The notes beneath the pieces were generated by a model. That model did not search any database, was not told the DNA's origin, and saw nothing but the letters and a program-made list of their open reading frames with translations. Shown piece after piece: positions 8,168 through 8,733 of a stretch of 21,333 nucleotides of DNA (position 1 is the first letter of the stretch; each line of letters opens with the position of its first letter). Source of the stretch: a virus (Duplodnaviria > Heunggongvirae > Uroviricota > Caudoviricetes); IMG/VR virus record IMGVR_UViG_2684622617_000023. The stretch is one strand, 5' to 3'. Both the position numbers and the translations under genes were made by a program.

Positions 8168-8251
8168 TTATCCCCAGCGGCAAATCGAATACACAACCAG
8201 CGCCACCGCCATCGCAATTCCTACCGTTGTGAATGCTTCAGGCCAGGTCAT
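8168..8251 (-). CDS. Small hydrophobic peptide (27 aa, MTWPEAFTTVGIAMAVALVVYSICRWG)
   Basis: Not in the ORF track (under 60 aa). GGAGGA Shine-Dalgarno 9 nt upstream; ATG 8251-8249 overlaps the upstream gene's TGA (ATGA coupling). One predicted transmembrane helix by eye. Confidence 0.4.
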   Translation of the reverse strand: MTWPEAFTTVGIAMAVALVVYSICRWG

Positions 8252-8733
8252 CGTGAAACATCCTCCACGCTTATAAGTCCGCTTCGCTCCAGGTAGTCCA
8301 TCACTTTATCCGGCAATTTGCAGCCCGGTTTCGCTTTCTTCAGTTGACTAACCAATTGTTTAACCAGCATTGTCAATTCGCGAACTTGTTTCCCGGGCTC
8401 CCCTTTGCCCTGAAGCAGGGCAGCGCGGCAAGCGTTCCATCCCTCAGCATATGTTTCAGTTACACCATCGAGATGGCATGTAAGCAAATCCATTTCTTCC
8501 GGCACTACGGGCGCTGGAAAAACGGCATAGGGTGGCGTCCATTTTGGCGCTTTATCTCCAGCCGAACGCTGCTACCAGTCATCCGGTTTGTATTCATAAA
8601 AATCACCAACTGGCTCTGCTTCCAGCGATGCCAGCGCAATCCGTGCCAGTTCCATTTGTTCACCACGGGTAAGCCCGTTTTCAACCGGATTTTTAATGAA
8701 CAATTCAATACGTTCTTTGGTAATAGTGGTCAT
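8248..8733 (-). pseudogene. Phage ORF interrupted by an in-frame amber codon (53 aa + TAG + 107 aa in one frame); alternatively two adjacent small genes
   Basis: ATG 8733 has a strong AAGGAG Shine-Dalgarno and reads MTTITKERIELFIKNPVENGLTRGEQMELARIALASLEAEPVGDFYEYKPDDW, then TAG at 8574-8572 (plus strand cta). The same frame continues QRSAGDKAPKWTPPYAVFPAPVVPEEMDLL... to the stop at 8248. No good Shine-Dalgarno for an independent downstream start. Confidence 0.45.

Follow-up and report, generated by a model that had tools for sequence, protein, structure and literature searches.

The phrog_660, Eaa and DUF551-associated proteins of lambdoid phages are constructed from a kit of parts. In an alignment of 36 members an N-terminal module of ~42 aa ending in IALASLEAEP is followed by a variable, proline-rich middle that often includes GWNACRAA(M/L)L, and then by a conserved C-terminal module of ~48 aa, ELTMLVKQL...GLISVEDVLR. 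Intact phrog_660-type members have 123–234 aa. Some relatives contain a DUF551 domain, and PF04448 is found in only some of the homologues that share the N-terminal part.

Here we analyze a member of this family that is interrupted by an amber codon. It lies in a stretch of 21,333 nucleotides (IMG/VR record IMGVR_UViG_2684622617_000023), all of which we term the window. The window is the prophage Sp10 (in strain Sakai) or CP-933R (in EDL933) of Escherichia coli O157:H7; the 1301 bases around the gene are 100% identical to many O157:H7 genomes, those of Sakai and EDL933 among them. The N-module, the GWNACRAA motif and the C-module of the window gene recur in many combinations among the phrog_660, Eaa and DUF551-associated proteins. 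Unlike the phrog_660 and DUF551-associated proteins the window copy is interrupted, and it has no DUF551 domain.

An intact form of the gene, a single ORF of 167 aa encoding WP_000137958.1, is found in phage vB_EcoS-666R9 (URC10131.1) and in E. coli strains 7/2, EE72d and DA33137. Like the window gene it lies downstream of genes for DnaC-like, DUF1627 and DUF977 proteins, and it is followed by the same 27-aa ORF. From the codons of IALASLEAEP onwards the DNA of these intact genes is ~99% identical to that of the window. They differ in having TAT where the window has TAG, in their N-terminal module (MTELTKKQL...), in a leucine rather than a serine at the penultimate codon, and in a KilA-N gene on the 3′ side where the window has a cytosine methylase.

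A second relative is the 55-aa ‘Eaa protein’ of phage vB_EcoS-689R5 (URC08896.1), which occurs in many E. coli and Shigella and is present on at least 1000 contigs. It has the N-module of the window, MTTITKERIELFIKNP.ENGLTRGEQMELARIALASLEAEP, and the same upstream neighbor, and like the 53-aa product of the window it ends about a dozen residues past IALASLEAEP. However, it terminates with a different tail, VVFWFEKYQEGATA, and there is no amber codon; instead its TGA overlaps the start of a second family member. In the phage 689R5 genome (L004) this ‘EaA’ ORF and the second family member are located at 2521–2688 and 2180–2524, respectively, with an ATGA overlap. A fused, single-ORF version of this pair also exists, as a protein of 167 aa (P0012).

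A third copy, in E. coli ST2747 (NZ_CP007392.1, CF58_RS27075), shares with the window the TAG itself, the serine variant and the methylase flank. It differs in its MTELT 5′ module, and in lying directly after the DUF977 gene, without ECs_1949, the DUF4014 gene or ECs_1950.

Comparison with these relatives indicates that the window gene is very probably an inherited nonsense allele of ordinary kind, in a non-essential accessory gene that belongs to a lambdoid prophage and to the modular Eaa-like family (phrog_660).

The interrupted reading frame

Translation of the minus strand from 8733 to 8248 gives 53 sense codons, TAG at 8574–8572, a further 107 in-frame sense codons and TGA at 8250–8248, as reported in a preliminary description of this DNA. 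That description had also claimed a strong ribosome-binding site, and this is borne out: by direct reading the start ATG (8733–8731, minus strand) is preceded by AAGGAG at 8745–8740, the duplex of which with the 3′ end of 16S rRNA is worth –8.7 kcal/mol. This is in the upper range of Shine-Dalgarno energies among the annotated genes of the window.

The 5′ part of the gene (8572–8733, minus strand) comprises the 53 codons and the amber stop. It is ECs_1951 / Z2391 / WP_000208018.1, the old locus names being those of PMC1890555. It encodes an N-terminal helical module extending to IALASLEAEP, and then a linker of 12 residues. The module matches the initial parts of the PHROGs profiles phrog_60, phrog_3323 and phrog_660, and the 53-aa protein is itself found on at least 1000 contigs. 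The 3′ remainder (8248–8571, minus strand), separated from the start by the amber codon, consists of the 107 in-frame sense codons and TGA. Within it are the middle motif GWNACRAALLQ and the conserved C-terminal module ELTMLVKQL...GLISVEDV. Judged from base composition, the chance probability of 107 open codons behind a stop is ~0.002–0.006; the open stretch is fully accounted for by the relatives, which encode a single gene across the position of the TAG. None of the in-frame ATG, GTG or TTG codons beyond the TAG has a Shine-Dalgarno energy better than –3.8 kcal/mol, in keeping with the earlier statement that there is no convincing independent second start.

With tyrosine restored at the amber codon, residues 1–160 of the read-through product align with positions 3–192 of the 193 positions of phrog_660 (E = 1.6e-44). 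The profile spans both halves, and these therefore belong to one family unit. The match is full length, but with TAG at codon 54 the gene is not the single uninterrupted ORF of the other members. Pfam finds no family above threshold in the read-through product, so this is not a member of DUF551 (PF04448). Searches of the protein with Pfam, NCBIfam and PADLOC gave nothing informative, and PHROGs only families without an assigned function. AlphaFold2, given 35 homologues, yields only a poor model of the read-through product (mean pLDDT 56, pTM 0.25); the model has helices at residues 6–38 and 91–150, with the amber codon falling in a low-confidence linker, residues 42–90.

Tyrosine is the ancestral residue

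In DNA alignments the premature amber codon (8572–8574, minus strand) stands where intact alleles have TAT, encoding tyrosine. A single T-to-G substitution in the coding strand at window position 8572 converts the one into the other. The intact proteins P0002–P0007 of a large protein collection, which have 162–167 aa and carry three different N-terminal modules, all have tyrosine at this site, as do more distant members of the family that contain the YKPGDWYQRS segment. Since the intact relatives and the more distant members agree in this, we take tyrosine to be ancestral and TAG to be derived. The preliminary description had proposed a search for homologues forming one 161-aa protein with a sense codon at this position, and the relatives are indeed single proteins of this kind, though of 162–167 aa. 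It had also considered that homologues might consistently be two separate proteins with the same stop; this is not so, the intact relatives being single ORFs.

A search of the large protein collection found no intact protein in which the N-module of the window is joined to its C-terminal part. As this combination is not found intact, and the 5′ module has been exchanged, the comparison suggests that the exact 161-aa combination of the window may never have existed as an intact gene.

Distribution and origin of the TAG allele

How widespread is the TAG allele? Counting with a 66-mer centered on the amber codon, we find the segment in 275 of 5426 complete E. coli genomes, with TAG in 173 and TAT in 102. 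Among viral contigs of IMG/VR the segment is present in 19, divided into 8 with TAG and 11 with TAT, and the three isolated phage genomes that have it all carry TAT (TAG in none). The TAG sequence is also found in a Logan contig, assembled from short reads. The genomes with TAG include O157:H7, O111:H8 and other strains. Scanning a single genome from each species gave no match to the exact segment; it is seen in E. coli and its phages.

Two 5′ modules are found ahead of the TAG. The arrangement of the window, with the MTTIT module, is that of about 167 genomes, while six records from four strains have the TAG behind the other 5′ module, MTELTKKQL.... The MTELT module is found in all 14 of the TAT loci. 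On the 3′ side, every TAG locus with sufficient sequence (9/9) has TCA (serine) as the penultimate codon together with the methylase flank; neither the serine variant nor the methylase flank is found at any of the 14 TAT loci, and alleles other than TAG have TTA (leucine) at the penultimate codon. The simplest history is that the TAG arose once, on the methylase-linked haplotype, as indicated by the complete linkage of TAG to the serine variant and the 3′ cytosine-methylase flank. The ST2747 copy matches the window in TAG, serine variant and methylase flank, and thus derives from the same mutational event.

The shared segment (8575–8640, minus strand) runs from the IALASLEAEP codons (8640–8611) up to the TAG, and it is here that variants of the gene exchanged the 5′ module. 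The window, ST2747, strain 7/2 and phage 666R9 all have this segment in identical form, whereas the sequence 5′ of it is completely different. The presence of TAG behind both modules therefore indicates that exchange within the IALASLEAEP segment came after the mutation. The donor of the 5′ part of the window resembles phage 689R5, which shares with the window both the N-module and the upstream gene.

The allele may thus be traced through a short series of events. A single base change would have converted the tyrosine codon TAT into TAG, in the linker between the N- and C-terminal modules. This would have happened once, on the haplotype linked to the 3′ cytosine-methylase module. Later recombination within the IALASLEAEP segment would then have placed a different 5′ module ahead of it, giving the arrangement of the window, and the allele would have spread with a still-mobile prophage to O157:H7, O111:H8 and other E. 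coli. Excision and circularization of Sp10 and its transfer to K-12 have been reported (PMC2669165), and this mobility fits both a dispensable gene and the spread of the TAG allele by hitch-hiking. Ribosomes initiating at ATG 8733 are expected to terminate at the TAG and to yield an N-terminal fragment of 53 aa, and the 107 codons beyond it would be translated little or not at all, save by near-cognate read-through or weak internal initiation.

The preliminary description offered a recent nonsense pseudogene as one reading of the locus. The nonsense pseudogene is supported by the tyrosine codon of the relatives; ‘recent’ requires qualification. Rather than being private to one strain, the TAG allele is common to O157:H7, O111:H8 and further lineages, and since it arose the 5′ module has been exchanged at least once. 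We count the neighboring frameshifted DUF4014 gene in favor of a nonsense allele. The 107 codons past the stop have suffered no further damage, which fits a young allele and equally well continued use; because all the TAG copies are nearly identical, the undamaged 3′ part cannot distinguish a young pseudogene from a constrained sequence.

The TAT allele provides another case of disruption. One IMG/VR copy (L017, IMGVR_UViG_2563366939_000004) has an independent frameshift near the C-terminus, giving a protein of 149 aa that ends ...KPAANCRIK. It too suggests that the gene can be dispensed with.

Alternative readings of the locus

Database annotation treats the locus as two genes. RefSeq (PGAP) has two hypothetical proteins, of 53 aa (8572–8733, WP_000208018.1) and 81 aa (8248–8493, minus strand, WP_000365100.1), and the first annotation of EDL933 began the 3′ part at GTG 8505, giving 85 aa (AAG56431.1). 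Could these be real genes, the ancestral protein having been split at a disordered linker into a 53-aa N-module starting at ATG 8733 and an 81-aa C-module starting at ATG 8493? Both ORFs are called by PGAP, the AlphaFold model, poor as it is, sets the TAG in a low-confidence linker between helical modules, N-module-only proteins of 55 aa are widespread, and the 3′ part is undamaged. Yet ATG 8493 has a weak GGA-type site of –3.5 kcal/mol, where most genes of the window have –6 to –13 kcal/mol, and GTG 8505 is poorer still (+1.0 kcal/mol). Moreover ATG 8493 corresponds to an internal methionine (EEMDLL) of the intact homologues, and none of the best 120 homologues was seen to start at this point. 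The 81-aa ORF has also been called by older annotation where the 167-aa ORF is intact (P0167, DA33137). Gene callers have thus chosen it despite an intact longer frame, and so the call is no evidence of a start. The 81-aa ORF probably does not constitute a separate gene, and a pair of genes with an unseen second start, as the preliminary description had allowed, is unlikely.

RefSeq is not consistent on this point, since the same allele is two ‘hypothetical proteins’ in O157:H7 and O111:H8, and in ST2747 a pseudogene, labeled by PGAP as having an internal stop.

A different possibility concerns the N-terminal fragment alone. Stand-alone N-modules of ~55 aa are very common, so the 53-aa product may retain some activity, and by this analogy it might be functional rather than mere debris. 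The amber allele and the 55-aa Eaa form together indicate that truncation just past IALASLEAEP arose at least twice in the family. One could then suppose that the amber mutation created a usable N-module-only protein, paralleling the 55-aa Eaa form by a different route; we consider this decidedly unlikely. Were it so, truncation past IALASLEAEP would be a recurrent and tolerated, perhaps even favored, remodeling of the family, and this, rather than hitch-hiking, would explain the spread of the allele. Internal initiation or leaky termination might still supply the C-module in small amounts.

We regard it as very improbable that this is a read-through gene, in which leakiness or suppression of the UAG would provide a functional protein of 161 aa at a fixed, low level. 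The amber codon is followed by C, and UAG-C is a comparatively weak termination context in E. coli; the frame downstream is intact. However, the window contains no tRNA with a CUA anticodon, its only tRNA genes being those for tRNA-Arg (TCT) and a tRNA with a CAT anticodon, and so no suppressor is encoded by the element within this stretch. The sieB gene in the same window ends with TAG. Furthermore, only one haplotype has the TAG, and it lacks conservation in the family at large, where the residue is tyrosine. The read-through gene of the preliminary description is disfavored on all these counts. General reassignment of the stop codon was also considered, and rejected; sieB uses TAG as its stop, and no other annotated gene of the window has an in-frame stop.

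The sole ‘read-through’ protein in the databases is P0001 (159 aa, 99% identical, with glutamine at the amber site), and it comes from DNA that has the TAG. It was examined as an intact or revertant allele and rejected for this reason. Its source, L006 (Logan contig SRR27176603_314), is identical to the window over all of its 1447 bases, and translation of the gene does not give the stored protein. P0001 is an artefact of gene calling, most likely produced when a code with TAG as glutamine was applied to a short contig of E. coli prophage. Entries of this type can mimic intact or read-through homologues, and database proteins should be used with caution as evidence of read-through.

A sequencing error at 8572–8574, which the preliminary description had named as something that would refute it, or an assembly error there, is ruled out by the allele counts, the same base being present in the 173 independently assembled complete genomes, the eight IMG/VR contigs and the Logan short-read assembly.

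Thus we return to the inherited nonsense allele. It is ordinary in kind and not a new kind of gene, and one RefSeq genome already flags it as a pseudogene. It adds another decayed accessory gene to a prophage of a pathogen already studied in depth, and its biological weight is small. Yet the TAG with its linked serine variant provides a clean marker with which to track the methylase-linked prophage module, and it reveals intragenic exchange of modules at a conserved junction.

The 27-codon ORF

The amber gene is followed on the minus strand by a hydrophobic ORF of 27 codons, MTWPEAFTTVGIAMAVALVVYSICRWG (8168–8251), the ATG of which overlaps the TGA of the amber gene as ATGA. It has its own Shine-Dalgarno sequence, GGAGGA, within the last codons of the amber gene (–9.4 kcal/mol). 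The ORF is conserved across the aligned relatives; phage 689R5 and some E. coli genomes have it annotated, whereas the RefSeq record of EDL933 does not. It looks like a real gene for a small membrane peptide. Its ribosome-binding site is expected to be retained despite the amber mutation. Clustering of a protein collection places the 27-aa peptide with DUF551 proteins of 121 aa; we disregarded this, as those proteins do not contain the peptide.

The prophage and its gene neighborhood

In Sp10/CP-933R the replication genes precede the amber gene. The order on the coding strand is the DnaC-type loader, DUF1627, DUF977, ECs_1949, the frameshifted DUF4014 gene, ECs_1950, the amber gene and the C5 cytosine DNA methylase. 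The DUF4014 family gene (9009–9226, minus strand) is two genes upstream of the amber gene, and PGAP annotates it as frameshifted in EDL933 as well as in O111:H8, which makes it a second accessory gene of this operon to be disrupted.

The literature on ECs1951, ECs1952, Z2390 and Z2391 that we found consists of a CGH table and one mention in a transcription network, with no translation data. In the CGH table these genes are present in all of the lineage I strains and in none of the other strains of that study.

On the 3′ side lie genes for a GHKL-type ATPase (HATPase_c_3, 463 aa; 4317–5708, plus strand), a PF20553 ‘putative O-methyltransferase’ (329 aa; 5708–6697, plus strand) and the C5 cytosine DNA methylase (6665–7816, minus strand). 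The first two are convergent with the methylase gene, which is overlapped by 33 bases. The methylase gene is preceded by its own promoter-like site, 7878–7849, which is a match to consensus only. This trio (4317–7816) is completely linked to the TAG allele. It looks like an inserted accessory or defense-type module; PADLOC recognizes the methylase alone.

The attachment site of Sp10 is that of Rac; of all the Sakai prophages Sp10 alone has an intact ExoVIII-type recombination system, and its repressor lacks a peptidase domain (PMC2669165). The region 12400–21333 of the window is a Rac-like early-left and immunity region, with intR, xisR, ralR, recT, recE, kilR, sieB, ydaF, ydaT and ydaV. The left end of the window is not collinear with EDL933. 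Positions 1–1078, within which the tRNA-Arg (TCT) and CAT-anticodon tRNA genes lie at 825–1077, match positions 1161–2238 of the EDL933 locus at 98%; 1079–2322 have no match in the EDL933 stretch that was compared, and from 2323 onwards the identity is 99.99%. The non-collinear left end (1–2322) therefore indicates that the late-regulatory region is a variant one in the strain from which the window derives.
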